This document shows positions 6,439 to 53,762 of a stretch of 53,762 nt of DNA, piece after piece. Both the position numbers and the translations under genes were made by a program. Under the pieces are notes generated by a model that saw only the letters and a list, made by a program, of their open reading frames with translations, was not told the DNA's origin and did no database searches. Origin of the DNA: Nanobdellati archaeon (GTDB lineage: Archaea; EX4484-52; GLR71). The stretch spans positions 1 through 53,762 of the forward strand of contig JAHYJR010000007.1 in NCBI GenBank assembly GCA_019429005.1. The letters run 5' to 3'. Positions within the stretch are counted from its first letter, which is position 1, and each line of letters begins with the position of its first letter.

Positions 6439-7614
6439 TTATTTTTTATCTTGAATCGATAAAATAAGCTCAGTTACATCTGCATCAGTTCTAATTCCAG
6501 TCGGTGTAAAATGAGTTTTTGATACAGAAAAACCTAGAGATTTTAGTTTTTCAATAATTATATCCATCTTAGGTATACTAAGACTATTTTTCTTACAAAA
6601 ATCATGCAAATCATAAAATAAATAATTAATCTTTGATTCTTCCATTACAAGATTAAGAAATTTATACATTTTAACAACATTCTTATCTTCACTCAATTCA
6701 GAATCAAAATTATCAAGAACAGACTTTAAAAAAGGGGAATCTGACATAGATCCAATCCATAAAGGTCCACCCGTCTGAATTGTTTTAGAGCATTTAGGGC
6801 ACGTAATTAAAGACTTGTCACTAGATAAAAACGTTCTAAACCCACAATGTGTGCAGTACGCAACATACCCTATATTTTTAAGTGAATTATCTGTTTTAGT
6901 CTTACCTTTTGTTGCAATTGCAAATATTCTAAAATAATGTTGATCTGAAAAACTCAATACTGGCATAAAAGCCTTATCATATCTTGAAACTGCAAAAGCT
7001 ACCTGACCCATAAGAATCCTAAGGCCAACTTCATGCATAATATCATGATGTAATGGCCTTGCACCATATTTTCTAAAACAAGCTTTGGGATAAGTACCAG
7101 AAAGTGGTGCAGTATCAGTTGCAGTAACAGCAATCATTGAATATCTACTTAAAGCCCTTGCAGCAGAATCCAAAAATATATTAGGCGAACCAAAAGGATC
7201 AATATCAACAAAATCAATTGAATCTTTATATCCTGATAAAAATTCATTTGCATCTAATAGAGAAAATTCAAGAGAATCAACATCATTTAAGATAGCATTC
7301 TCTTTTGCAAGATCTAATGCGGTTGGATTAAGATCATTAAGATAAACAACATCGCAACCAGATTCTTTCCTATATCGTATACCTCTAACACCTGATGCAC
7401 AAAAGACATCTGCAGCAAAAAAAGGATGTACTTTATCTTTTGTTTCTAATAACTTATTTTTTTGAGCTGAAAACTCATTCAATACAATAACAGATATATC
7501 CCTATTTAACCTCATCAAAGGGTTATAAAATACAGAATCCGACTTCTTGATATCTCCAGAATATATTCTAAATGAACATTTGCCTTCAATAATTTTTTGA
7601 GATTTATCTGCCAT
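6439..7614 (-). CDS. trm1: tRNA (guanine26-N2)-dimethyltransferase
   Basis: VFYNP..LNRD, ASGVRGIRY, DIDPFGSP, TATD, CxxC..CxxC finger, THFTPTGIRTDA. Confidence 0.96.
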   Translation of the reverse strand: MADKSQKIIEGKCSFRIYSGDIKKSDSVFYNPLMRLNRDISVIVLNEFSAQKNKLLETKDKVHPFFAADVFCASGVRGIRYRKESGCDVVYLNDLNPTALDLAKENAILNDVDSLEFSLLDANEFLSGYKDSIDFVDIDPFGSPNIFLDSAARALSRYSMIAVTATDTAPLSGTYPKACFRKYGARPLHHDIMHEVGLRILMGQVAFAVSRYDKAFMPVLSFSDQHYFRIFAIATKGKTKTDNSLKNIGYVAYCTHCGFRTFLSSDKSLITCPKCSKTIQTGGPLWIGSMSDSPFLKSVLDNFDSELSEDKNVVKMYKFLNLVMEESKINYLFYDLHDFCKKNSLSIPKMDIIIEKLKSLGFSVSKTHFTPTGIRTDADVTELILSIQDKK

Positions 7615-7675
7615 AAGAATCATAATAGAAATCAAATATAAAAATCTTAGTAAAAATTAAAAAAAATCACTTATT

Positions 7676-9310
7676 TTAGTGATCAATTAATTTTTTCTCT
7701 TCATAACTCTCTTTAGCAAGATCATCACGAACTCTCTCAAGAACAATATCATCCTCAGGTGGTTTTTTATTATCTTTTATCTTATCACCTTTTAAAGTCG
7801 CTTTAACAACATCATCTTTAATTATAGAATTTTTAACAGACTTGTCACCTTTAGGCTCTTTAAGTTCACCTGCATCTTTAAGTTCCTTAAGTTTCTTTCC
7901 AAGCACAAATATGAAACGTTTTGTATCTTCCTTAATCTCATAAATTTCACGCTCAGGAACCATCTCGGCTTGACCTTTCTTTGCAACAACCATAGCTTTT
8001 GCAATCTTTTCAAAAACAAATTCATGTTGTTCTTTAAGATCTGGGAATGTACTTGCCATCACTTTTGGAAGATCTTTAAGTTTCTCAGGTGGTTTTATAC
8101 CTTTAAGTTCAAGAGCACCAACATTTGCTCTCAAAAAAGTCTTATAAGTATCAAGCAGAATACTTGATTTTTTCTTTTGTTCAAGAACTTTCAAAAGCTC
8201 AACCATACGCTTAACAAACTGATCACAAATCTCTATATGTTCATCAACCTTAACACCAAGCCCTTTCAAATTTGCTTCATCATCATCATGTTCCATCTCT
8301 TTTGCAAATTTATGGATTTTATCTGCATAATCAACATATTTCTGCTCAAGAAGTTTCTGTTCAACAAAATAATGTTTTAATTGTTTTGATGTCGCTTCTT
8401 TTCCAGCTGGAATCTTTCCAATAAACATCAAAGGTGCCTGACCTGCTGCAGCCATTGCCTGTTCAAGGTAATGTGCGGCAGATTTCACTCTATATTGAGC
8501 CATCTTAAGATGTTGTGGTGCTATATGAATTCTTTTTGATACAGCTTCCATAGTGGTTGGAAGTTTACCTCGCTGAAGCATCCTTTTTGCAGGCATAAAT
8601 ACACCCACATCAAACACAGGAATACCATTCCGTAATACAACCATAACAAGGGGTTCTACACTCCGTATAGACTCCCAGAATTCAGTTAAAAACATAAATG
8701 CTTGTATTGTAATATTTTTATCAATTTTAGCTGCAATCTTTCTAAGATCAGCCCAAATACGATCTTTTACTTCTGCAGGAATATCATTTTCTAACTTTGT
8801 ATCATCAATAATAACAAAAGTGTCTATATCACTTGTCTCCTTATGATCCCCTCGTGCAGTAGAACCATAAACAACAACAGCTTTCAATGATTTCTTAAAC
8901 TCTTTTGCAAGTTCCTTAGCATATTTCTGTGCAATTTCAAACCTAAGCCTTTGACTTTCCTCTGTTGTTAATATTTTCTTATTTGTATCATCTTTTGTAT
9001 CTGATTTTACATCATCTTTTGTATCTGATTTTACATCATCTTTTGTATCTGATTTTACATCATCTTTTGTATCTGATTTTACATCATCTTTTGTATCTGA
9101 TTTTACATCATCTTTTATATCTGATTTTACATCATCTTTTGTATCTGATTTTACATCATCTTTTATATCTGATTTTACATCATCTTTTGTATCTGATTTT
9201 ACATCATCTTTTATATCTGATTTTACATCCTCTTTAGATACATCATCCGAAACAGAACTCTCTTTTTTATTATCTTTAACAACTGCTTTGGAATGGTCTT
9301 TTTCAGTCAT
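7676..9310 (-). CDS. Pol-beta-superfamily minimal nucleotidyltransferase (MNT) fused to HEPN-like helical domains, with an N-terminal charged repeat
   Basis: YGSTARG...SDID motif followed by all-helical domains; ATG 9310 follows an AGTGA SD. Confidence 0.8.
   Translation of the reverse strand: MTEKDHSKAVVKDNKKESSVSDDVSKEDVKSDIKDDVKSDTKDDVKSDIKDDVKSDTKDDVKSDIKDDVKSDTKDDVKSDTKDDVKSDTKDDVKSDTKDDVKSDTKDDTNKKILTTEESQRLRFEIAQKYAKELAKEFKKSLKAVVVYGSTARGDHKETSDIDTFVIIDDTKLENDIPAEVKDRIWADLRKIAAKIDKNITIQAFMFLTEFWESIRSVEPLVMVVLRNGIPVFDVGVFMPAKRMLQRGKLPTTMEAVSKRIHIAPQHLKMAQYRVKSAAHYLEQAMAAAGQAPLMFIGKIPAGKEATSKQLKHYFVEQKLLEQKYVDYADKIHKFAKEMEHDDDEANLKGLGVKVDEHIEICDQFVKRMVELLKVLEQKKKSSILLDTYKTFLRANVGALELKGIKPPEKLKDLPKVMASTFPDLKEQHEFVFEKIAKAMVVAKKGQAEMVPEREIYEIKEDTKRFIFVLGKKLKELKDAGELKEPKGDKSVKNSIIKDDVVKATLKGDKIKDNKKPPEDDIVLERVRDDLAKESYEEKKLIDH
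8987..9226. repeat. In-frame coding tandem repeat, 10 x 24 bp, encoding VKSD(T/I)KDD
   Basis: Unit ATCATCTTTTRTATCTGATTTTAC on the + strand. Confidence 0.97.
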
Positions 9311-9364
9311 AGGAATCACTTAGATATTTATTAAATTTGAACGTTATATATAATTAACGATTTA

Positions 9365-11470
9365 TTATTTGTATCGCGATTTCAACCAAACATTCATTTT
9401 ATTTTTATTGAACGCATTTGTACTTCTCATAGTTCGATCAGGTAAAGAAAACATAAATAGATTATCCTTAAGCATGTCAAACGCATGTTCACGCACCGCA
9501 AACTGCTGCATTGCCTTAAATGACTCATCAATACCAAACAGCCTTGGCGGTAAATTTTCAGGTTCTATCTCTTGAATAAGACAATCTTTAAGATCCCTAT
9601 AAACTATAGCAGACTCTCCCGGATTACCCCAACTACCCCATTCCCATATTATATATGCATTTTTAATATCTGCTTTCCTCATAGCCCATAACTGCTCATA
9701 CAATATTTCAGGATCTAATGAAAGACGACGTATTGCACCATGAACACCCCAAAGAGGTCTTGGCGCATTAAGATGAAACATTGAAAAATATTTATTTGGA
9801 TTAAGACCTGTCTTATCTCTCCATCTTTCAAGAAGTTTAGCTTCATCAACAGGATTAAGATAATTAAGATTAAGATGCTCTGTATCCATACAATAATTAA
9901 TCATTTCGCCATCATCAATAGCCCGACAGATTTCAACATGATCAAGTATACTCATAACCCTTAAACGTCCCTCATTATTATCTACACTAGGCATATTTGT
10001 CTCAATATAGATTGTAAGTCCTTCATCTTTCAAATAATCATAGAGAGATTGGGTTTTTATAACCTCACCCTTAATATCTTTATAGCATTCATTATCATTA
10101 AGTAAATTTTTATGCGAATGTATTGACGTAGTATGCGGTGGATTCGTTGACTCTTTAGATGTTTCACCATCTATACGCATACCACCCTCAAAACTATTTA
10201 CTTTCAAATGCCCTTCAATGTATTTTCCAGCAACAGCTGTCACCATCTTCGAAAGAGGCACAGTTATCCGCGCAACAAGTTCTGAATTCTGAACAATATT
10301 ATCAGGATCAAACTCGTCTGAAAATGGATTCTTACTATCTGTAATATCAGACAATACATATGCCCACATTTTATCTTTAGTTTTCCACATCCACTTTGCA
10401 ATTATATGATAAGCCACAGATTCATCTGCAACAGAACCCTCCTTGACCCAGGTCTCAAAAAGATCATAAAAATTATATTTAGAAATCTCTAAAATAGTAC
10501 CAAATGTCCTTTCATCAAAATCATTTTTCTTAAATAACTCATCTGAAAAGTTTGTTAATTTAACATTTTTTTCATTTTTCAATTTTTGAAACTTAAGATA
10601 TAATTCTTTATATTTTTCGGAATTTTCGGGTTCATTTTTATGACATTTTTCCAACTCATTTTCAACACCATATATTTCGTTATCTAATTTTTTATCATAT
10701 TCAAATATTTTTTTAGACACGTAACTAATTACACTAAATGCCTCTGTAAAACCAATATCCTTTTTTAATCTACGCCTAAAATAATTTCTTGCTTTAACAA
10801 TCCCTGCAAGATTAATTTTAACATACTCATCAAGATAATAAGACATAAACCAATCTTGCATATATGGCTTATCTGAATTGTCCTTATGCTTCAAGTCATC
10901 TATCTTTTTACCATAAATAAGACTAGTATTTTCACTGTAATATGTAATACCATCATTTTTTATAAATGAACCAATATTAGTCCCCCACGGACTAAACAAA
11001 ATAGCTTGACCTTGTTTAGGATTCACAGATACTGGCCTTATGTTTGACGAAGAATGGAACAAAACCCATTTAGGCTGTATTTTATCAACCGCACCTTTCA
11101 CACTATCTATCAAAATCTTATGCCATAAAGACCATTGCTGACCATACGCAAGAGTCAAGTCCATACGGACATTAAGATGAAGACCAAAATTAAACCCTGT
11201 TTTTTCTTTAACAACCTTCATTTGTTCCCTCAACATAGGTTCATGAACTTCTGATGTCTCTTCAAGTGTCATCATCGCAAAATCAAAACCAAGATATGAT
11301 GCTTTAACAAGTTTATTTGCAAGACCCAGATAATTATTACCAGCCGGCTTAGCAAAACCGGGATCACCTGAGACTATATAACCCACAGGCTTACCTTTTT
11401 TAATGTCCCAAGCCCTAAGTTTATCTAATGCTTCATTCGAAATACCTGGTTTACTATTATCCTGCGTCAA
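9365..11470 (-). CDS. Xylose-isomerase/endonuclease IV-like TIM-barrel metalloprotein with a large insertion
   Basis: Ordered ligand motifs GLH, FHSS, YIET, MDTEH, FHLN..H and IWE; TTG start after GGTGA. Confidence 0.65.
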   Translation of the reverse strand: MTQDNSKPGISNEALDKLRAWDIKKGKPVGYIVSGDPGFAKPAGNNYLGLANKLVKASYLGFDFAMMTLEETSEVHEPMLREQMKVVKEKTGFNFGLHLNVRMDLTLAYGQQWSLWHKILIDSVKGAVDKIQPKWVLFHSSSNIRPVSVNPKQGQAILFSPWGTNIGSFIKNDGITYYSENTSLIYGKKIDDLKHKDNSDKPYMQDWFMSYYLDEYVKINLAGIVKARNYFRRRLKKDIGFTEAFSVISYVSKKIFEYDKKLDNEIYGVENELEKCHKNEPENSEKYKELYLKFQKLKNEKNVKLTNFSDELFKKNDFDERTFGTILEISKYNFYDLFETWVKEGSVADESVAYHIIAKWMWKTKDKMWAYVLSDITDSKNPFSDEFDPDNIVQNSELVARITVPLSKMVTAVAGKYIEGHLKVNSFEGGMRIDGETSKESTNPPHTTSIHSHKNLLNDNECYKDIKGEVIKTQSLYDYLKDEGLTIYIETNMPSVDNNEGRLRVMSILDHVEICRAIDDGEMINYCMDTEHLNLNYLNPVDEAKLLERWRDKTGLNPNKYFSMFHLNAPRPLWGVHGAIRRLSLDPEILYEQLWAMRKADIKNAYIIWEWGSWGNPGESAIVYRDLKDCLIQEIEPENLPPRLFGIDESFKAMQQFAVREHAFDMLKDNLFMFSLPDRTMRSTNAFNKNKMNVWLKSRYK

Positions 11471-44957: not shown

Positions 44958-45560
44958 TCACAACCGCCCAATCTTCCCCGCATCAGTCAATCTAAGCCCA
45001 CCATCAGTTGTGATAAACCCAGAATCGCGAAGGTCATCAATGTTCCTATAAAACATAGCCCTAGAAAGCCCGCATTTCTCACTCATCTCAGCCAAAGATA
45101 TATTATCAGGTGACGAAGAAATCACATCCAAAACAGTCTTCTGACTTTCTGTAAACTTAAATGACATCTTTGGAAGATACACTACAGAACTTTTATCTTC
45201 TTCAGGATTATAAGCAATCTTACTAACACGAGAACTACGCGCATATGCAGCAAACAAAAGTCCAAGTGCCTTAGTCTTCCGACCTGCAGTGATGTTCACA
45301 AATATCTCATCATCTTTAGGCTGAAGATCAATTATCTCCACACATTTACGGGCAACAGACACAATATCATACACATCTGTACGGACCTCCTTAACATCCA
45401 CCACACGCCCTAGAGAATTCTTGATAAGATCAAAATTCTGTTGCTGAGTCTTATCAGGTTTATCATCCATAAGCAATATCAGCCTATTAGGTCCAAGCTG
45501 TGTAGCTGCCACAAGCACAGGATCTGGAGAATATATTGTTGCTATAAGAACTTTAGCCAT
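44958..45560 (-). CDS. csa3: Csa3-like CARF + winged-HTH transcriptional regulator
   Basis: CARF strand VLIAT, NITAGRK motif, LP linker and wHTH SRAMFYRNIDDLRDSGFI...LTDAGK. Confidence 0.85.
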   Translation of the reverse strand: MAKVLIATIYSPDPVLVAATQLGPNRLILLMDDKPDKTQQQNFDLIKNSLGRVVDVKEVRTDVYDIVSVARKCVEIIDLQPKDDEIFVNITAGRKTKALGLLFAAYARSSRVSKIAYNPEEDKSSVVYLPKMSFKFTESQKTVLDVISSSPDNISLAEMSEKCGLSRAMFYRNIDDLRDSGFITTDGGLRLTDAGKIGRL

Positions 45561-45593
45561 GATATATATTACACATTTATACTTTATATGTAT

Positions 45594-45605
45594 TTTGTAT
45601 ACAAA
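45594..45605. promoter_or_regulatory. Perfect palindrome TTTGTATACAAA, candidate operator
   Basis: Lies in the 97-bp divergent gap between the regulator and the island operon. Confidence 0.45.
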
Positions 45606-45657
45606 CCAATAGACAAATATATAAAATTATACACGAATATTATATTTAATACAATTA

Positions 45658-47136
45658 ATGGTGATTATTATTGAAGCGAATATGGCTGAATTTGTTAACA
45701 TACAAGAGAACGATATCAAAACAATAAAATACCTATTGAACTATTTCAAAAAAGATAACGATTCAACTTTACTAAGCAAAAGCTACCTATTCTTTGGAAC
45801 TCCAGGTATTGGAAAAACAACACTTGTAAAAGACATCATAACTTCAATGAATGAAGATATAATCTATATGGCATGGAGACAACTTAATCTGAAAAATGCA
45901 ACAAAAGTAGACACTTTTGAAAAATTAAATGAACTTGCAAACAACAACAAAAAACAAATCATATTCATTGATGACATAAACATATTACTTGAAAAAAATG
46001 AATTTGATGTCATAATTCCAAAACATCAAAAATCAATAATGGAACTTCTTGATAATGTAAAAGAAAATGCAAATAAAGTCTTACTAATGACATCAAACAA
46101 TATTGACTTTTTTGAGATGCCAATACTTGATAGGATAGAGATTACCATCAATTTTGACTTGCCTTCAGAAAAAAATAAACTTAACTTCATAAATTCTAAA
46201 TATTCAAAATACATAACACCTGAAAACATATCATTCATAATCAAAAATTCAATTGGTTATAATTACAGAGATCTCTCAGAAATGATAAAATTTTCTTGGC
46301 GCATAAACGATAAAAAAATAACAAACAAATCGTTGAAAAGAGCATTACATACATGCAAACCAAAAGGTCTTCATACTTTTGATATACATCATCAGATTGA
46401 TACAAACCTAAAAGACATAATTGGCAAAGATAAGGCAGTACAGCTTGTAAACAGATTATCATTGCTTCAAAAAAATGAAAAGCTTAAGCAAAACCTAGGC
46501 ATAAGAAGAAACAACTTAATTCTTTTCCACGGTCCGCCTGGCACAGGAAAAACATTCATGGTTAAAGCGATCTCAGGCGAACTTAAAATCCCTATAATAA
46601 ACATAAGCACAAAAGAGATTTTAGGTGGAAATGTATACCGTACACTTGACATAATAGCAGAGATTGCAAAGACACACAAAGATTACATAATATTCATAGA
46701 TGAGGCTGACAAGATAATGGGTGGCAATATGTTTGATGAAGATAATTCACTAGTAGGTTCATTCCAAGCAGTTCTTGACAACATAGACAGCAAAGAGATA
46801 CAAGCACTATTGATATTGTCTGTCAACAACCCTAAACGTTTCGGCAAAGCATTCAGGGATAGATTTGTAAACATACCGTTCCTATTGCCAAACTTTGAAG
46901 AGAGACTGATCTTTTTAGAGAACAAAATTAAAACTGCAAAGGCTCACATCAAACTGGATATTGAGAGTTCGTACATTGCAGAAGAAACTGAAAACATGTC
47001 TTACAGAGACATGGACCGTATCTGGAACGACCTGATGTTCTATGCTCTTGAGAACGATGAACCTATAACTAATGATACCTTTGATGAGATAATGGGTGCG
47101 TCTAAGAAAAAGATTGTAAATTGTATTGTTGATTAA
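45658..47136 (+). CDS. Tandem AAA+ ATPase (two AAA modules)
   Basis: GTPGIGKT/IFIDD and GPPGTGKT/IFIDEAD, each with an SRH-like Arg. Confidence 0.88.
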   Translation: MVIIIEANMAEFVNIQENDIKTIKYLLNYFKKDNDSTLLSKSYLFFGTPGIGKTTLVKDIITSMNEDIIYMAWRQLNLKNATKVDTFEKLNELANNNKKQIIFIDDINILLEKNEFDVIIPKHQKSIMELLDNVKENANKVLLMTSNNIDFFEMPILDRIEITINFDLPSEKNKLNFINSKYSKYITPENISFIIKNSIGYNYRDLSEMIKFSWRINDKKITNKSLKRALHTCKPKGLHTFDIHHQIDTNLKDIIGKDKAVQLVNRLSLLQKNEKLKQNLGIRRNNLILFHGPPGTGKTFMVKAISGELKIPIINISTKEILGGNVYRTLDIIAEIAKTHKDYIIFIDEADKIMGGNMFDEDNSLVGSFQAVLDNIDSKEIQALLILSVNNPKRFGKAFRDRFVNIPFLLPNFEERLIFLENKIKTAKAHIKLDIESSYIAEETENMSYRDMDRIWNDLMFYALENDEPITNDTFDEIMGASKKKIVNCIVD

Positions 47137-47147
47137 TGGTGTTAAAT

Positions 47148-47771
47148 ATGAAATTTAAAAAAATAACAATAAAAAATTATAAACTATTTAATGATGCTAC
47201 AATTACCTTTAATGACAATTTAACTGTTATTGTTGGTAATAATGGTTCTGGAAAAACCATACTTTTTAATTTACTTAAAAATTATAAAAATACATCAAAA
47301 GACTATTCAATAGATATTGACGGAACTATACCAACAGAAGAAACATATGGTTTTATATCTGAAAACCGTTTATCACAAACGGATCTTTTACAAGAATTTG
47401 ATGAAACTAATGAACTCTTTATGAATGAAATACAACAATTAATTCCACAAATTACAACAGATTTAAAATCACACAAAAAAACATTTAATCAATTAAAAGA
47501 AACCTTTGCCGTTGGTGAAAAAATACTATTTGATTTTGCTAAAATTTTTACATTAAGACAAATAAATAATACCCAGTTCCCTATTGTTTTAGATTCACTT
47601 TTTAGTATTTTAAGTAAAGATAAATCAGAATTATTACTAAAAAGATTACTTAATTTAAACGAACAAGTGATTATTATTGAAAATGAACATTCATTACCAG
47701 ATGGATTAAGTATGAATTATAAATTGAACTATAAAGATGAAAAAACGAATATTGAACAGATTCATAATTAA
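47148..47771 (+). CDS. Compact ABC/SMC-type ATPase lacking a coiled coil
   Basis: IKNYKLF, GNNGSGKT, degenerate signature FAVGEK, PIVLDS and QVII. Confidence 0.75.
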   Translation: MKFKKITIKNYKLFNDATITFNDNLTVIVGNNGSGKTILFNLLKNYKNTSKDYSIDIDGTIPTEETYGFISENRLSQTDLLQEFDETNELFMNEIQQLIPQITTDLKSHKKTFNQLKETFAVGEKILFDFAKIFTLRQINNTQFPIVLDSLFSILSKDKSELLLKRLLNLNEQVIIIENEHSLPDGLSMNYKLNYKDEKTNIEQIHN

Positions 47772-47860
47772 TGACGAGTTAACTAAGTTTGAATACAAAA
47801 TATATAAAATGTTTAAATGCATCAAAAACTAATAAATTAAATTATATAAAAAAACGAAAT

Positions 47861-47911
47861 AATGTACACATAAAACGTTACAATGACCTAAATGTGAATT
47901 TAGATAACAAG
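47861..47911 (+). repeat. Junction repeat A: degenerate copy of helicase codons 5-21 (core GACCTAAATGTGA, 47885-47897)
   Basis: 34/51 nt identical to 51328-51378 by manual alignment. Confidence 0.65.
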
Positions 47912-47919
47912 GGATAAAG

Positions 47920-48942
47920 ATGACTATTAAAAAAATCACCCCAAAAGATAAAACTACAGAATTCTTACTCTATAATTCACCTGATGGAAAAATAAAAGTA
48001 GAAGTCTTTTTGCATAATGAAAATATCTGGCTCACTCAAAAACGAATAGCAGAATTATTTGATGTGACAATCCCTACTATTAATGAACATTTAAAAAACA
48101 TTTTTAATTCAAATGAATTAGACGAAATTTCAGTTATTAGGAATTACCTAACAACTGCTAATGATGGGAAAAAATATGCTACTAATTTCTACAATCTTGA
48201 TGCAATAATTGCAATAGGGTACAGAGTAAATTCAAAAAAAGCAACTCAATTTAGAATCTGGGCAACTAAAATCCTGAAAGAATACATGCTCAAAGGATTT
48301 GCAATGGATGATGAACGACTCAAAAATGGGAAATATTTTGATAAAGATTATTTTGATGAGCTTTTGGAACGAATTAGGTCCATAAGGTCAAGTGAAAGAA
48401 GAATCTATCAAAAGATAACAGATATTTTTGCAGAATGTAGTATTGATTATGATAAAGATTCCATGATTACAAGAAACTTTTATGCAACAATCCAAAATAA
48501 ATTCCACTATGCGATATCTGGAAAAACTGCAGCAGAAATAATATACAAAAAAGCAGATGCAAAAAAACAAAATATGGGTCTGTCAACATGGAAAAATGCG
48601 CCCACAAGTAGGATTTTGAAATCAGATACAATAATTGCTAAAAATTATCTGTCTGAAGAAAATATTAAAAAATTAGAACGAACGATTTCAAGCTTTTTTG
48701 ATTATATTGAAAGGATCATTGAAAATAGAACTACAATGGTTATGAGTGATTTGGCAAAAAGTGTGAACAACTTTTTAGAATTTCATGAATTCAAACTATT
48801 AGATGGAAAAGGAAAAAGATCTTATAAACAAGCTGAAGATAAAGCGTTTAAAGAATATGATCTATTTAACAAGACCCAAAAAATAGAATCTGATTTTGAC
48901 AAACTGACTAAGAAATTAAACCAAAAAATTGAAGATATCTGA
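47920..48942 (+). CDS. rhuM: RhuM-family virulence/DNA-binding protein
   Basis: WLTQK.IAELF, YNLDAIIAIGYRVNS..ATQFR.WAT, IRSSERRIYQKITD and QNKFHYA. Confidence 0.93.
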   Translation: MTIKKITPKDKTTEFLLYNSPDGKIKVEVFLHNENIWLTQKRIAELFDVTIPTINEHLKNIFNSNELDEISVIRNYLTTANDGKKYATNFYNLDAIIAIGYRVNSKKATQFRIWATKILKEYMLKGFAMDDERLKNGKYFDKDYFDELLERIRSIRSSERRIYQKITDIFAECSIDYDKDSMITRNFYATIQNKFHYAISGKTAAEIIYKKADAKKQNMGLSTWKNAPTSRILKSDTIIAKNYLSEENIKKLERTISSFFDYIERIIENRTTMVMSDLAKSVNNFLEFHEFKLLDGKGKRSYKQAEDKAFKEYDLFNKTQKIESDFDKLTKKLNQKIEDI

Positions 48943-48992
48943 GATGAACATAAATTATGTACACACAAAGTTGAACAAAGACTTAAATGTAA
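48940..48992 (+). repeat. Junction repeat B: degenerate copy of the helicase 5' end (core GACTTAAATGTAA, 48980-48992)
   Basis: TGAG-ATGAACATA... is 37/48 nt identical to 51316-51363 from the ATG. Confidence 0.8.
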
Positions 48993-49034
48993 AAGTACTT
49001 GAAAAACCAAATACAATTGTGAAGGTTATTTAAT

Positions 49035-49877
49035 ATGGAAAAAAATATAATCACAAAACTCACTAAAACATTTGAAGATTATATTCATATAGAAGACAGA
49101 ATCGAATTTTGGTTTGCAAGAGATTTACAAACACTTTTAGGTTATTCTAAATGGGAAAATTTTGTAAAAATTATAGAAAAAGCAAAAATTTCTTGTAAAA
49201 AGGCAGGACAAGAAGTAAACAATCATTTTCCTGACGTCAAGAAAACGATAAACATGCCAAAAGGTGCAACAAGAAATATTGACGATTATATACTAACAAG
49301 ATATGCCTGTTACCTTATTGCTCAAAATGGAGATTCAAGAAAAGATGAAATTGCATTTGCACAAAGTTATTTTGCAATACAGACAAGAAAACAAGAATTA
49401 ATTGAAGAAAGGATTGCATTAAAAGAACGCGTTGATGCAAGAGAAAAATTAGTGAAATCTGAAACAGAACTTTCAAAATTAATTTATGAACACGGTGTAG
49501 ATAATAAAGGTTTTGCAAGAATTAGAAGCAAAGGTGATCACGCTTTATTTGGTGGACATAACACAAAACAAATGAAAATAAAACTAAATATCCCACAAAA
49601 TAAACCAGTTGCGGATTTTCTTCCAACAGTTACAATTGCAGCTAAAAACTTTGCAACAGAAATAACAAATTTTAATGTTAAAAAAGAAGATTTGCAAGGC
49701 GAATCTAAAATTACAAATGAACACATAAAAAACAATAAACGAATTAGAACTGTACTTCTAGAAGATGATATTATTCCTGAAGAGTTGCCTCCTGAAGATG
49801 ATATTAAAAAGCTAGAAAGAAGAATTAAAAAGGATGAAAATACACTAGCTAAAGTGTCAAAGACGCTGTTAAAATAA
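49035..49877 (+). CDS. dinD: DNA damage-inducible protein D (Bro-N domain)
   Basis: WFARDLQ.LLGY..WENF, LTRYACYLIAQNGD, AQSYFA.QTR and IRSKGD.ALFGG. Confidence 0.93.
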   Translation: MEKNIITKLTKTFEDYIHIEDRIEFWFARDLQTLLGYSKWENFVKIIEKAKISCKKAGQEVNNHFPDVKKTINMPKGATRNIDDYILTRYACYLIAQNGDSRKDEIAFAQSYFAIQTRKQELIEERIALKERVDAREKLVKSETELSKLIYEHGVDNKGFARIRSKGDHALFGGHNTKQMKIKLNIPQNKPVADFLPTVTIAAKNFATEITNFNVKKEDLQGESKITNEHIKNNKRIRTVLLEDDIIPEELPPEDDIKKLERRIKKDENTLAKVSKTLLK

Positions 49878-49929
49878 AACAACAATTTCAACTTAGGGTG
49901 AAATGAAAAATTGTTGATTAAACGCTGAG

Positions 49930-49942
49930 GATTTAAATGTGA
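49930..49942 (+). repeat. Junction repeat C: core only (GATTTAAATGTGA)
   Basis: Matches the cores of A and B at 11/13 and occupies the equivalent intergenic position. Confidence 0.45.
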
Positions 49943-49987
49943 CAAACACCAATAAATTAAGATATAAAATAAAAAAGATGTTCAATT

Positions 49988-51313
49988 ATGATAAAATTAG
50001 AAAAAACAATGAAATTTTATGATGAAATTAAAAATATGGGGTTTTTTAAAAGATTATTTTCATGGGGTAGTATAATACCTTTACTGACTGAATCCTATTC
50101 TGAAATAACAAAACTTGATGAGATATCAGAAACAAATAATAAGCTTACATCAGATCTCAAAGTTGCAGAAGGAACTATAGAATCATTAACTAATACAATA
50201 AATAAACATGAAATGAAAATATCCAGTTTAGATACTGAGATAAAACATCTGAATCAAGATATCAAGAAAGAAGAATCTGAAGTTGCTAAATTAGAAGAGA
50301 CAAAAGAACAGAACACAGATTTAATATCTAACTTAAAAGCTAATATTAGGACTCTTGAAGATAAAAGAGAGACTTTAACAAAAGAGACTAAAGATTTAAG
50401 CGGTAAAATAAGCCAATTTGAAAAAGTCAAAGAAGAACAACAAAAAAAATACGATGAGACTATTGCAAAACTAGAAAAAAGAGAAGACACTCTTGAAAAG
50501 AGAAGACAAGAACTTGAAGATCAAGAAGTTGGTAAAGAAACACAAAAATTTGAAGAAATGAAAAAAACATGGCGAAATCATGAAATCGCAATTGAACAAT
50601 CAATAAAAAAGATATGCAATAAATATACAATTGATTATTTTGATAAAGAAAAAGTGCCATTCAAAGGTAAACCAGATAACAGCATAAAGATTGCAAACGA
50701 ATTCATCATTTTTGATGCAAAAAGTCCATCAAATGATGATTTAAATAATTTCCCAACATATATCAAAAATCAAGCAATTTCTGTCAAAAAATACATTACA
50801 GAATTAGATGTAAAAAAAGATATTTTTTTAGTCGTACCTACAAACACAATCGATATTTTAGATACAACATTCTATGATATGAGTGATTATAGAGTATATG
50901 TAATAACAATAGATTCTTTAGAACCTATAATACTAAGTCTAAGAAAAATTGAGGATTATGAATTTGCAGAAAAGCTAAGTCCGGAAGACCGAGAATCTAT
51001 ATGTCGTGTTTTAGGTCATTTTGCGCATCACACTAAACGAAGACTCCAGCTTGATACATTTTTAGCTAATGCATCTTTAGACTTGCTTAAAAGTTGTGAA
51101 TACTTGCCTGAAGAAATATTAGATGAAGTAAAAAATCATGAGCTAAAAACAATAATCAATGTCCCTATGGACAAACGTTCTAAAAAGTCCAACTTAGAAA
51201 AACTAATAATTGACACAAAAAGGTTAACTGGTGAAGTTGAGCCTCAAGACATAAATACAAAGCAAACCGCAAAGAAGATTGAGAGTATCGATCTATACAA
51301 CAAAGAAGATTGA
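49988..51313 (+). CDS. Coiled-coil + PD-(D/E)xK nuclease (RmuC-like)
   Basis: About 160-aa coiled coil, then E...KPD...IIFDAK. Confidence 0.75.
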   Translation: MIKLEKTMKFYDEIKNMGFFKRLFSWGSIIPLLTESYSEITKLDEISETNNKLTSDLKVAEGTIESLTNTINKHEMKISSLDTEIKHLNQDIKKEESEVAKLEETKEQNTDLISNLKANIRTLEDKRETLTKETKDLSGKISQFEKVKEEQQKKYDETIAKLEKREDTLEKRRQELEDQEVGKETQKFEEMKKTWRNHEIAIEQSIKKICNKYTIDYFDKEKVPFKGKPDNSIKIANEFIIFDAKSPSNDDLNNFPTYIKNQAISVKKYITELDVKKDIFLVVPTNTIDILDTTFYDMSDYRVYVITIDSLEPIILSLRKIEDYEFAEKLSPEDRESICRVLGHFAHHTKRRLQLDTFLANASLDLLKSCEYLPEEILDEVKNHELKTIINVPMDKRSKKSNLEKLIIDTKRLTGEVEPQDINTKQTAKKIESIDLYNKED

Positions 51314-51315
51314 GT

Positions 51316-53762
51316 ATGAACATAGATAATGTGCGCACAAAGTTAGGCGATGACCTAAAAGTAAACATAGACAGCAAATCTAAGATAAAGTTATGCGCTG
51401 CCTATTTTTCAATATATGCCTTTGATGAACTAAAAAAAGAGCTATCAAAGATAAAAGAATTTTCATTTCTATTTAATTCTCCAACCTTTTTTGAAACAAA
51501 TAATAAGGATAAGAAGGAAAAAGAGTTTTTTATACCACCTTTTGTAAGAGAGAGAACTATTGCTGGTGGTGAATTTGAGATAAAATTAAGAAATAGTCTT
51601 AGTCAGAGAGCAATCGCAAGAGAATGTAGAGAATGGATTGAGAAAAAAGGAAAATTCAAAACTTTAAAGCAAAACATAAGAGCTAATAATGGTATATTCA
51701 TTGAAAATAAAGATGATACGATTGCATATACAAATTTTGACAGCTTTACTGCAGACGGTCTTGGATATGAACAAAATAAAGAACTTATAACTCCAATATA
51801 TCCAAAGATGACAGGTGATAATGCAAAACAATTTATAGATCAATTTAATCAAGTCTGGGATAATAAAGACTTTACAAGTGATGTAACTGAAAAAGTAATT
51901 AATTATATTTCATCAGTCCACAAAGAGAACTCTCCAGAGTACCTTTATTTCATAACACTTTATAATATATTTAGTGAATTTTTAGATGATATCAACGAAG
52001 ACAATATCGCAAATGAAAAAACGGGGTTTAAAGACACATTAATCTGGGATATGATGTATAATTTTCAAAAAGATGCAGTTCTTGGTGCAATAAATAAACT
52101 AGAGAGATTTAATGGATGTATTCTTGCAGATGGCGTAGGTCTTGGAAAAACATTTACAGCTTTAGGTATTATTAAATATTATGAGCTTAGAAATAAGCAA
52201 GTTTTAGTTCTGTGTCCAAAAAGATTATCTGAAAATTGGACAAGTTTTAAATCAAATTATACGACAAATTTATTGTTTAAAGATAGATTTAATTATGATG
52301 TCCTTTTTCATACCGATTTATCAAGAGAACGTGGTGAGAGTAACGGTATAGATCTTGAACGGATTAATTGGGGTAATTATGATTTGATTGTAATTGATGA
52401 AAGTCATAATTTTAGGAATAATACTGCAAGAGCTGACCGTGATACACGTTATCAGACATTGATGAAAAAAGTAATTAGATCTGGTGTTAAAACAAAAGTA
52501 TTGATGCTTTCTGCCACACCAGTCAATAATAAATTTTTGGATTTAAAAAATCAACTAGCTTTAGCTTATGAGGGTGATACAGGGAATATTAATGAGTCTC
52601 TAAATATCTCAAAAGATATAGACTCAGTATTTCGTGATGCACAGGCATCATTTAATGCATGGTCTAAACTAGATACAACTGAGCGCACTACACAAAGACT
52701 ATTAGATTCATTAAGTTTTGATTTTTTTGAATTATTAGATTCAGTAACTATTGCTCGTTCAAGAAAACATATACTGAAATATTATGATACAAAAGATATA
52801 GGAAAATTTCCAGTAAAAAATAAACCAATAAATAAAACTTTTGAATTGACAAGTATAGAAAACTTTCTATCATTTAAAGATTTTTTCGATATATTAAGCT
52901 CATTAAATCTTGAAATATATTCACCGTCAAAATGGATTTTACCAGATAGAAAGGCATATTATGAAGCGAAATATGATACTCAGTTAAGTAATAAATCATC
53001 ATTAAAACAATCAACAAGAGAAACAGGAATTATGAAATTGATGAGAGTCAATATCCTTAAACGGTTAGAGAGTAGCATTGAATCATTTAGGATAACTATG
53101 ACTAAATTAAACAACAATATTGAAATGACACTTAAAGCAATTAATAATTTCAATAATGGTGGTTCTGATGAGTTACAAGCTGTTGATTTAAGTAATGTTG
53201 ATGATGAAGATATAGATAATTATGATAATGGATTCAATATAGGTACAAAAATAAAGATAAATCTTAAAGATATGGATGTCTTATCCTGGGAACGAGAGCT
53301 TAAGCAGGATAATAAAATAATTTCAGACTTATTGGTTGAGATTAAAAAAATAACTCCGCAAAAAGATAGTAAATTAGAAAGTCTTATATCTACAATTGAA
53401 GGAAAAATTAATAGTCCTATAAATCCAGATAATAAAAAAGTGATTATATTTTCAGCTTTTGCAGACACAGTACATTATCTATATGAACATATATCTAAAC
53501 ATTTTTTAGAGAAACATAACTTGCATTCTGCATGTGTCAGTGGGACAAAAACAAATAAATCAACATTAGACATAGGTCATAATGATATGAATCGTATTTT
53601 AACATGTTTTTCTCCAATATCAAAAAATAAAGACTTAATTGGACTTAAAATATCCGGAGATATTGATATTTTAATTGCAACAGACTGTATTTCTGAAGGA
53701 CAAAACTTGCAAGATTGTGATTATTTAATTAACTATGACATCCATTGGAATCCAGTTCGCAT
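51316..53762 (+). CDS. SNF2-family helicase, 3'-truncated by the window edge (not in the ORF track); type usually linked to type III R-M loci
   Basis: Open frame from ATG 51316 to the end: AYFSIYAF, FQKDAV, LADGVGLGKT, DESHNFRN, LSATPVNN, KRLESS and SEGQNLQD..INYDIHWNPVR. Confidence 0.92.
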   Translation, partial: MNIDNVRTKLGDDLKVNIDSKSKIKLCAAYFSIYAFDELKKELSKIKEFSFLFNSPTFFETNNKDKKEKEFFIPPFVRERTIAGGEFEIKLRNSLSQRAIARECREWIEKKGKFKTLKQNIRANNGIFIENKDDTIAYTNFDSFTADGLGYEQNKELITPIYPKMTGDNAKQFIDQFNQVWDNKDFTSDVTEKVINYISSVHKENSPEYLYFITLYNIFSEFLDDINEDNIANEKTGFKDTLIWDMMYNFQKDAVLGAINKLERFNGCILADGVGLGKTFTALGIIKYYELRNKQVLVLCPKRLSENWTSFKSNYTTNLLFKDRFNYDVLFHTDLSRERGESNGIDLERINWGNYDLIVIDESHNFRNNTARADRDTRYQTLMKKVIRSGVKTKVLMLSATPVNNKFLDLKNQLALAYEGDTGNINESLNISKDIDSVFRDAQASFNAWSKLDTTERTTQRLLDSLSFDFFELLDSVTIARSRKHILKYYDTKDIGKFPVKNKPINKTFELTSIENFLSFKDFFDILSSLNLEIYSPSKWILPDRKAYYEAKYDTQLSNKSSLKQSTRETGIMKLMRVNILKRLESSIESFRITMTKLNNNIEMTLKAINNFNNGGSDELQAVDLSNVDDEDIDNYDNGFNIGTKIKINLKDMDVLSWERELKQDNKIISDLLVEIKKITPQKDSKLESLISTIEGKINSPINPDNKKVIIFSAFADTVHYLYEHISKHFLEKHNLHSACVSGTKTNKSTLDIGHNDMNRILTCFSPISKNKDLIGLKISGDIDILIATDCISEGQNLQDCDYLINYDIHWNPVR

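Follow-up and report, generated by a model that had tools for sequence, protein, structure and literature searches.

Helicase-start stubs and restriction-operon remnants between accessory genes of an archaeal defence island

The locus described here raises the question of how a row of accessory genes came to stand directly upstream of a helicase gene, separated from each other by sequences that resemble the start of that same helicase. It lies at the end of a 53,762-nt stretch of DNA from a Nanobdellati archaeon (hereafter, the window), which is the whole of contig C7 (JAHYJR010000007.1) in an assembly of 1.08 Mb (GCA_019429005.1; 15 contigs, 30% G+C, completeness 93.6%). The archaeal identity of the assembly is borne out by a class I lysyl-tRNA ligase and a Hef-associated nuclease. 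The defence island in question, at positions 44.9–53.8 kb, comprises the genes of a CARF-HTH regulator, a double-AAA+ protein, a 211-aa ATPase, rhuM, dinD, a 441-aa coiled-coil protein and the helicase, which belongs to a restriction-modification (R-M) operon. An original prediction, made from the letters of the DNA, had proposed that single-gene cassettes were inserted serially at the helicase 5′ end, in an integron-like manner, at four junctions that share a 13-nt core, each cassette bringing a replacement start for the helicase. The analysis that followed confirmed two of the three upstream helicase copies and found remnants of the restriction operon itself at the boundaries, so that we lean towards reading the array as the result of operon turnover and decay.

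Stubs and remnants between the accessory genes

The helicase start and two sites upstream of it, named here stubs A and B, formed the strongest direct-repeat family in positions 47000–52000. With stub B (48944–48993) as the reference, the helicase start (51316–51365) was 78% identical and stub A (47849–47898) 70% identical over 50 nt without gaps. The helicase start (51300–51385) was then compared with each junction by Smith-Waterman alignment, with 3000 dinucleotide shuffles as the null. The scores obtained, 51 for B and 36 for A (47859–47910 against 51326–51377), were reached by 0/3000 shuffles in both cases. A scan of both strands of all 15 contigs provided an empirical null: the best non-self matches of the helicase start in the whole genome were B (51) and A (36), with a background of 33 or less, and those of B were the helicase start (45) and A (41), again with a background of 33 or less. 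Taken alone, the match of A to the helicase start was marginal (36 against a background of 36), and stub A is counted as real because of its link to B.

Stub A, supported by the direct repeat, the local alignment and the shuffles, extends over 47849–47910 on the forward strand and corresponds to helicase codons 1–21 in a degenerate form that has lost the start codon; its frame, a mini open reading frame at 47849–47917, ends in a TAA located 2 nt ahead of the rhuM ATG. Stub B, on the same strand and supported by the repeat scan, the shuffles and the genome scan, corresponds to codons 1–17, retains the ATG and begins 1 nt past the rhuM stop. When a profile of the helicase N-terminus (106/120 family proteins) was run over the genome, neither A nor B was among the top matches (background 13 bits, true start 60 bits). 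The stubs are therefore visible at the DNA level only, against the window's own helicase, and as the profile is blind to both, A and B are decayed copies of the kind of helicase start that this genome possesses and not conserved functional peptides. Both share one orientation and stand immediately ahead of an accessory gene, and they must have remained from earlier helicase starts.

Junction B turned out to be chimeric. The homology to the helicase begins about 22 nt ahead of the ATG, extends to codon 17 and is followed by the 3′ end of a methyltransferase gene (Mod) of the kind found, together with a restriction gene (Res), on contig C3 of the same assembly. This Mod 3′-end stub (49002–49034, forward strand; blastn to C3 and alignments) comprises the last ~11 codons plus the stop and is in frame with stub B. 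Both stubs together form a 29-codon mini open reading frame (ORF; 48944–49033) that opens at the former helicase ATG and closes at the former Mod stop, leaving 1 nt to the ATG of dinD, and its translation shares the final eight residues with the C3 Mod protein. From position 49002 onward, 888 nt were collinear with C3 6662–5777 at 84% identity (blastn), a stretch that takes in the 3′ end of Mod, then dinD and 10 nt beyond its stop codon, the site of the Res start in C3. Two pieces of Res follow on the forward strand. The first is a Res 5′ stub (49873–49891), in which the overlap of dinD stop and Res start is preserved with the Res start codon mutated; it was recognized from the 10 nt of the blastn match beyond the dinD stop and from local alignment. 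The second is an internal Res fragment (49889–49937; 82% over 49 nt to C3 3512–3464, E 3.3e-5), which corresponds to approximately codons 760–775 of the C3 Res and contains two in-frame stops.

The pieces from junction B onward are thus, in order, helicase stub, Mod stub, dinD, Res 5′ stub and Res internal fragment. This is the order expected of one operon copy that lost its core genes in at least three steps. Since the Mod stub on the left of dinD and the Res fragments on its right are collinear with Mod-dinD-Res on C3, the supposed dinD cassette is a collapsed operon copy. The dinD genes of the window and of C3 were 84% identical in nucleotides and 82% in amino acids, with 36, 22 and 79 differences at the first, second and third codon positions, respectively; the predominance of third positions indicated that both copies are old and that both are under selection. 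What collapsed was a diverged variant and not a fresh duplicate. Hence, the idea of discrete single-gene cassettes did not hold for dinD, the block of which is bounded by a Mod 3′ stub and two Res fragments from the interior of the operon, and neither did that of a replacement helicase start carried by every cassette, as this block brings none of its own.

The third predicted junction, C, gave a different result from A and B. Six sites in the genome carry the 13-nt core GAYYTAAAWGTRA, four of them at the predicted junctions and on the same strand; the pattern had been derived post hoc from those same four sites. Its position in codons 13–17 of the helicase and the peptides quoted in the original prediction were correct. 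Nevertheless, the alignment of the helicase start to C reached a score of 13, which was equalled by 2913/3000 shuffles. The first 8–11 nt of the core in copy C are the end of the 49-nt Res fragment (49889–49937), and the remainder is the start of another repeat, R2. Copy C was consequently rejected as a helicase copy, on account of both its score and its Res-derived flank. The tail that follows the core in C was also tried as helicase codons 17 onward and as continued Res, and both options were discarded (the scores were reached by 1638/2000 and 1927/2000 shuffles, respectively). The comparison with shuffles, which the original prediction had itself named as a check, thus upheld A and B and removed C. 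A core with four sites could not be maintained as a recombination site once C was recognized as a Res fragment joined to an R2 repeat. Likewise, the statement that exactly one gene lies between successive copies holds from A to B and nowhere else, as without C there are two genes between B and the helicase.

The R2 repeat was found at two places in the window. The copy at junction C (49930–49978, forward strand; direct repeat, pattern search and shuffles) meets the Res fragment at a shared TTTAAA. The other copy, A0 (47810–47858, forward strand), is AT-rich, has TATA-like motifs, lies directly upstream of stub A and is 79% identical over 43 nt to 49932–49974. It was the only other site in the genome within 8 mismatches of the 32-nt R2 pattern. 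The tails of the repeats were alike (6/2000 shuffles reach the score), and by local alignment R2 stayed within the AT-rich genome-wide background. A third copy was located on contig C6 (47339–47294), before a dinD fragment and with the same 16-nt Res/R2 junction. R2 therefore precedes stub A, the 441-aa gene and the dinD fragment of C6, and two of the three copies carry the identical 16-nt Res-derived junction. The repeat did not match the 3′ end of Res or the sequence downstream of it. We suspect that R2 is an old promoter region of the operon.

The machinery that an integron-like process would need was also sought. In the 93.6%-complete assembly there were no matches to tyrosine recombinases (PF00589; control positive in 14/14 genomes; an unassembled gene is possible) or to serine recombinases (PF00239; control positive in 12/14 genomes), so the search for a nearby recombinase that had been suggested came out negative for the entire assembly. 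Furthermore, a scan of 47000–52000 for attC-type imperfect inverted repeats revealed no conserved inverted repeat at the four junctions. The window does resemble an integron cassette array in being a row of mostly single, same-strand and tightly spaced genes of an adaptive or defence type, and it differs from one in the absence of an IntI-type recombinase (in the assembly search) and of attC-like inverted repeats and in having gene remnants as the boundaries of its units. An integron-like stockpiling of defence genes is unlikely on these grounds.

The operon in related loci and remnants elsewhere

The helicase family is very widespread in bacteria and occurs in some archaea as well; more than 8000 of its proteins were matched, along with 117 plasmid records. 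The relatives of the window helicase were 53–83% identical to it overall; 24 of them, at 65–83% amino acid identity, are 1075–1087 aa long, and the window copy extends for 815 aa up to the contig end. The gene order in 160 loci was helicase, DUF4391, Mod (N6_N4 methyltransferase) and Res (ResIII plus endonuclease), and the annotation of the Escherichia coli plasmid pHS30-1 contains the same four genes. The closest available locus, L093, comes from a Methanoperedens assembly (80% amino acid identity) and shows no stubs upstream of the helicase, where an unrelated 257-aa ORF is found. No helicase match at E ≤1e-50 was obtained in 41 other genomes of the phylum of the window. At E ≤1e-100, the Woesearchaeota genome G061 was itself the only one with a match among the 301 genomes of its order, and the N-terminal part of its helicase is missing from the G061 assembly. 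The operon is sporadic among the kin of the window.

Contig C3 (locus L092) carries the Mod (N6_N4_Mtase, E 1.3e-39) and Res (ResIII plus RE_endonuc, E 6.4e-30) genes referred to above, with the second dinD between them and an SMC-like ATPase gene before Mod. The ATPase, of 747 aa and SMC/ABC type with a weak TrlF-family match, is encoded at 8531–10774 on the minus strand, and its gene overlaps the Mod start. Neither DUF4391 (by tblastn) nor the C-terminus of the helicase was found in the assembly, and a 30-residue ORF tail at the end of C3 was not recognisable as DUF4391. C3 is probably linked to the window helicase.

In the related loci, extra DNA of more than 300 nt was present between helicase and DUF4391 in 29/135 cases, between DUF4391 and Mod in 57/120 and between Mod and Res in 48/106. 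The rhuM gene stood directly after Mod in 18 of the 160 loci, and dinD and ATPases like the 211-aa protein were operon-internal in relatives too; longer relatives of this protein were identified by blastp inside the operon of three other loci (L022, L030 and L041). Given that rhuM follows Mod and that the junctions are so often filled, rhuM and dinD are normally genes of the operon interior. In none of the 160 loci were they seen directly upstream of the helicase.

Additional remnants were detected on contig C6 of the same assembly (45447–48368; locus L173, approximately 7448–10369), around an intact AAA_14/DUF4143 ATPase gene and beside a UvrD-helicase/PD-(D/E)XK nuclease gene. They are 130 nt of rhuM, about 350 nt of dinD (82% identical to the gene in the window and 87% to that on C3), 28 nt from the start of rhuM and the Res/R2 junction already mentioned. 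These remnants indicated that the lineage has repeatedly gained and lost such modules.

The scan for stubs upstream of the helicase was carried out in the loci with at least 800 nt of upstream DNA, 58 from metagenomes and 64 from genomes (122 in total), the 38 of the 160 loci with a shorter upstream region being excluded. A helicase-start stub of comparable length was found in none of them, which gives the original prediction no support as a general one. The only clear upstream duplicate of a helicase start among the 122 was that of L014, a 21/22-nt duplicate of the ribosome-binding and start region (2708–2728 and 2847–2868) situated 140 nt upstream, within the preceding ORF. The upstream matches in L017, L025, L065 and L069 looked like chance. 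The N-terminus profile, applied to the 160 loci, recovered true gene starts only.

Stubs of other core-gene ends were encountered inside the operons of relatives. In L080 (16246–17789), an FRG gene is followed by a 28-nt Res 5′ stub, 20 nt, a 30-nt Mod 3′ stub, a second gene and Res. The order in L131 (17448–21489) is rhuM, Res 5′ stub, an AAA_14/DUF4143 gene, Mod 3′ stub, a Schlafen/AlbA_2 gene and Res. L051 (7629–8670) contains a 95-nt Mod 3′ stub between a gene and a RES-domain gene, and L096 (11942–12676) a PDDEXK_3 gene followed by a Mod 5′ stub, a DUF4391 3′ stub and Mod. In at least four unrelated bacterial loci with this operon, stacked accessory genes are thus bordered by gene-end stubs. 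Even distant loci show conservation, at the DNA level, of the Mod ends and the Res start. The gene-end matches in L086, L095, L148, L149 and L162 belonged to tandem full Mod genes and those in L126, L136 and L137 to interspersed repeats, and neither group entered the stub count; no decision was reached for L106 and L118. Between the core genes of L126, L136 and L137, the gaps hold interspersed or tandem short repeats, some of them near-perfect over 25–90 nt, which are unlike gene-end stubs. A literature search, which did not cover supplements, found no published description of gene-end stubs in R-M operons.

Gene content of the defence island

The left edge of the island is the gene of the CARF-HTH regulator (44958–45560, minus strand), a Csa3/CasR-like protein with a CARF and a winged-helix domain (Pfam HFX_2341_N, CARF_Card1 and HTH; PADLOC CARF3, E 2.7e-66). 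The next gene (45658–47136, forward strand, as are all those that follow) encodes a 492-aa protein with two AAA+ domains, IetA/IteA-like (Pfam AAA, E 4.6e-38; PADLOC IetA, E 2.9e-24), which scored 77 bits with the NCBIfam model IteA_antiphage, under the cut-off. The 211-aa protein (47136–47771) is an ABC/SMC-type ATPase (Pfam AAA_15 and AAA_23; PADLOC N-terminal matches to PbeC, PtuA and GajA). The start of its gene overlaps the stop of the double-AAA+ gene, and the regulator is divergent beside the pair (44958–47771). The two ATPase genes may constitute a defence system of their own, controlled by cyclic oligonucleotides. CRISPR-Cas genes were absent from the nine annotated genes at 44.1–53.8 kb, the remainder of the window not having been screened.

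Both rhuM (47920–48942) and dinD (49035–49877) are intact, and the names given to them in the original prediction proved right. The 340-aa RhuM matched PF13310 (Virulence_RhuM) with an E value of 4.2e-103 and 344.5 bits, well past the gathering score of 33.7, and PADLOC PDC-S05 at E 2e-148. The 280-aa DinD reached 354.2 bits with NCBIfam NF008573 (cut-off 242) and matched Pfam Bro-N. By contrast with these two labels, that of an RmuC-like nuclease for the 441-aa coiled-coil protein (49988–51313) was not borne out: its Pfam and NCBIfam matches were to coiled-coil models only, with no RmuC model among them. Its C-terminal domain has no recognised family, the last 270 residues giving no Pfam family at E up to 10. 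In a protein atlas it fell into unnamed clusters (0.98), with DUF2130 at only 0.89, and no homologue was found in the 160 loci of the relatives at E 1e-6. It may bear an 'IFDAK'-type resemblance to RmuC. The stop of the 441-aa gene overlaps the TTG start (51310) of the longest ORF of the helicase.

The helicase itself (51316–53760, residues 1–815) combines a PLD-like N-terminus with SNF2 domains (Pfam SNF2-rel_dom, Helicase_C and ResIII; PADLOC 'HKD+Snf2', E 3.6e-96). The end of the contig (53762) cuts it at residue 815 of ~1081. This break inside the helicase suggests strain heterogeneity or a repeat at the operon.

Origin of the array and its likeness to known systems

Putting these results together, we lean, with some reserve, towards the view that the array represents the scars of restriction-operon turnover and stepwise deletion, with retention of the autonomous accessory genes. 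A type III-like operon (SNF2/PLD-like helicase, DUF4391, Mod and Res) would have existed in earlier copies or variants that turned over and collapsed, and rhuM, dinD and the 441-aa gene would be the survivors, stacked at 47.8–51.3 kb. The accessory genes would formerly have occupied the internal gene junctions of the operon, as they do in relatives. The core genes of the older copies would have been deleted, with endpoints at short imperfect matches, so that what is left beside the survivors would be two helicase starts (A and B), the 3′ end of Mod, and the 5′ end and an internal piece of Res. The retained gene ends may supply start or coupling signals, as the 29-codon mini-ORF could do before dinD, and short gene ends probably survive where they adjoin surviving genes and serve them. 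The homology of the pieces and their order are read directly from the DNA, and from them we infer an order of events, a role for microhomology and a selection for the retention of stubs. The presence of two distinct Res fragments requires at least two deletions and hence a stepwise decay, as a single precise insertion would not give both. The similar identities of the pieces (stub B 78%, dinD 84%, Res fragment 82%) are those expected if they came from one diverged copy. The decayed pieces on C6 support an ongoing turnover, and the stubs in L080, L131, L051 and L096 and the failure to find a recombinase in the assembly count for decay as well.

Several observations weigh against operon turnover and decay. 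Several copies or variants of the operon are required side by side, and none is intact upstream. The rest of the intact operon is on another contig, C3, which need not be linked to the window helicase, and DUF4391 and the end of the helicase are missing. Stub A, rhuM and stub B follow each other at a spacing of 1–2 nt without any detectable remnant of Mod or Res; random deletions are rarely so tidy, and a displacement event therefore fits the rhuM junctions at least as well. The stubs are short, of 20–100 nt, both here and in the other loci, and neutral deletion would give a wider range of sizes, so that selection or a more specific process must be invoked. Lastly, the Res fragment by itself does not fully account for how well junction C fits the 13-nt core.

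The displacement event just mentioned would be of the recombinase-free, serial kind, driven by homology-facilitated illegitimate recombination (HFIR). Incoming DNA would anchor in the helicase and join illegitimately within its first 17–21 codons, so that each event would add the upstream genes of the donor and a new helicase start and shift the old start upstream, in a mirror image of the C-terminal displacement arrays at rhs, contact-dependent inhibition (CDI) and type VI secretion system (T6SS) loci. The very tidy spacing around rhuM is better explained in this way than by decay. The common orientation of A and B, the intact gene right after each of them, the intactness of the helicase, the greater divergence of the outer and older stub (70% for A, 78% for B) and the imperfect short matches at the helicase/Mod junction agree with it too, and excerpts of PMC5361080 propose HFIR for orphan immunity-gene arrays. 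Nevertheless, the incoming block would already have to hold a decayed operon (the Mod stub, dinD and the two Res fragments), and decay would be needed anyway. Moreover, no stub comparable to A and B lies upstream of the helicase in the 122 other loci, no locus of donor type, where accessory genes would stand immediately ahead of the helicase, came to light (L093 has its unrelated ORF there), and the same excerpts put the frequency of HFIR several orders of magnitude below that of ordinary homologous recombination. Serial displacement is thus the main rival explanation, considered possible but less likely than decay. Similarly tentative is the proposal that the accessory genes travel as modules together with the final codons of the core gene before them and the opening codons of the core gene after them. 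The short conserved gene ends would then be portable recombination arms between very different hosts; a clean exchange would replace a module, and modules would become stacked through one-sided or single-crossover events, with stubs left in pairs, such as those of Res 5′ and Mod 3′ in L080 and L131 or of helicase 5′ and Mod 3′ in the window.

The remaining explanations are all improbable. If the helicase-start repeat were a functional element, such as an operator, a leader peptide or a translational coupling device, copied before accessory genes for their co-regulation with the helicase, the position of both stubs directly before a gene at a spacing of 1–2 nt, the ATG of stub B with its in-frame 29-codon ORF to the dinD start and the nearby CARF-HTH regulator would be accounted for. 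The degeneration of the stubs speaks against such a role: they have lost residues conserved in the family and escape the N-terminal profile, stub A lacks a start codon, there is no copy before the 441-aa gene, other loci have no such repeats, and no Rfam match was obtained at E up to 1. Even less credit is given to site-specific, integron-like insertion at the core in codons 13–17 by a recombinase encoded elsewhere. Four of the six genome occurrences of the degenerate core coincide with the junctions on one strand, and at C the bases past the Res-derived part also fit it; the pattern was nonetheless defined from those very sites, C is flanked by Res and R2 instead of helicase, remnants of Mod and Res, not core sites, delimit the dinD unit, no recombinase was found in the assembly and no conserved inverted repeat at the junctions, and none of the 122 other loci offers a parallel. 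Scarcely credible, finally, is a chimeric metagenome contig in which strain variants were joined. The assembly has 15 contigs and the break inside the helicase suggests population heterogeneity at the operon, but the repeats are only 70–84% identical, with exact shared runs of ~9 nt, too little length and similarity to lead an assembler astray; the junctions are compact and coherent with the genes, and analogous stubs occur in independent assemblies.

As regards known systems, the locus is close to the type III-like R-M operon with four genes: the window helicase is of the full-length type, and Mod and Res of the same kind are on C3. The differences are a small-genome archaeal host, the split over contigs, DUF4391 not having been found, and the embedded SMC-like ATPase and dinD. 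Accessory genes within such operons have precedents. In the parts of the literature consulted, RhuM-like genes ride in R-M loci (PMC3710099), the coupling of accessory genes to R-M systems is in print as a general idea (PMC12707154), and toxin-like or abortive-infection genes are embedded in R-M operons, e.g., prrC in a type IC locus (PMC3710099; PMC12707154). The rhuM, dinD and ATPase genes are likewise tightly packed with R-M genes, and the internal junctions of the operon are often filled. Unlike the embedded genes of those accounts, those of the window stand ahead of the operon, with stubs of genes from that operon between them. The orphan arrays of rhs, CDI and T6SS loci, as excerpts of PMC5361080 describe them, provide the other parallel, with short stubs of a conserved segment and small genes stacked one way beside one intact copy; they form without a recombinase, and HFIR has been put forward as the mechanism. 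Those arrays extend downstream and are made of 3′ ends with immunity genes, whereas the window has 5′ ends upstream, remnants of Mod and Res, and defence accessories. The window shares with displacement arrays the stubs A and B placed before rhuM and dinD with the intact helicase downstream, and alternative modules in the active position, as such arrays would have, were absent from the 160 related loci. The array is best read as a variant of known phenomena, embedded R-M accessory genes and displacement or orphan arrays.

No new class of mobile element is revealed by the window, and the notion of an integron without attC is replaced by a more ordinary and testable process of turnover, deletion and possibly one-sided recombination. 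Should the tentative proposal of travelling modules be true, the gene ends of the operon would themselves constitute a recombinase-free cassette system, of which this archaeal window would be the most extended example. On the reading preferred here, of operon turnover and decay, rhuM and dinD would outlive the restriction operons that host them and then accumulate beside the current operon, and the short gene-end scars would allow a defence island to be read as a history. The search for such stubs could trace the movement of embedded defence genes between restriction operons and find new accessory genes.

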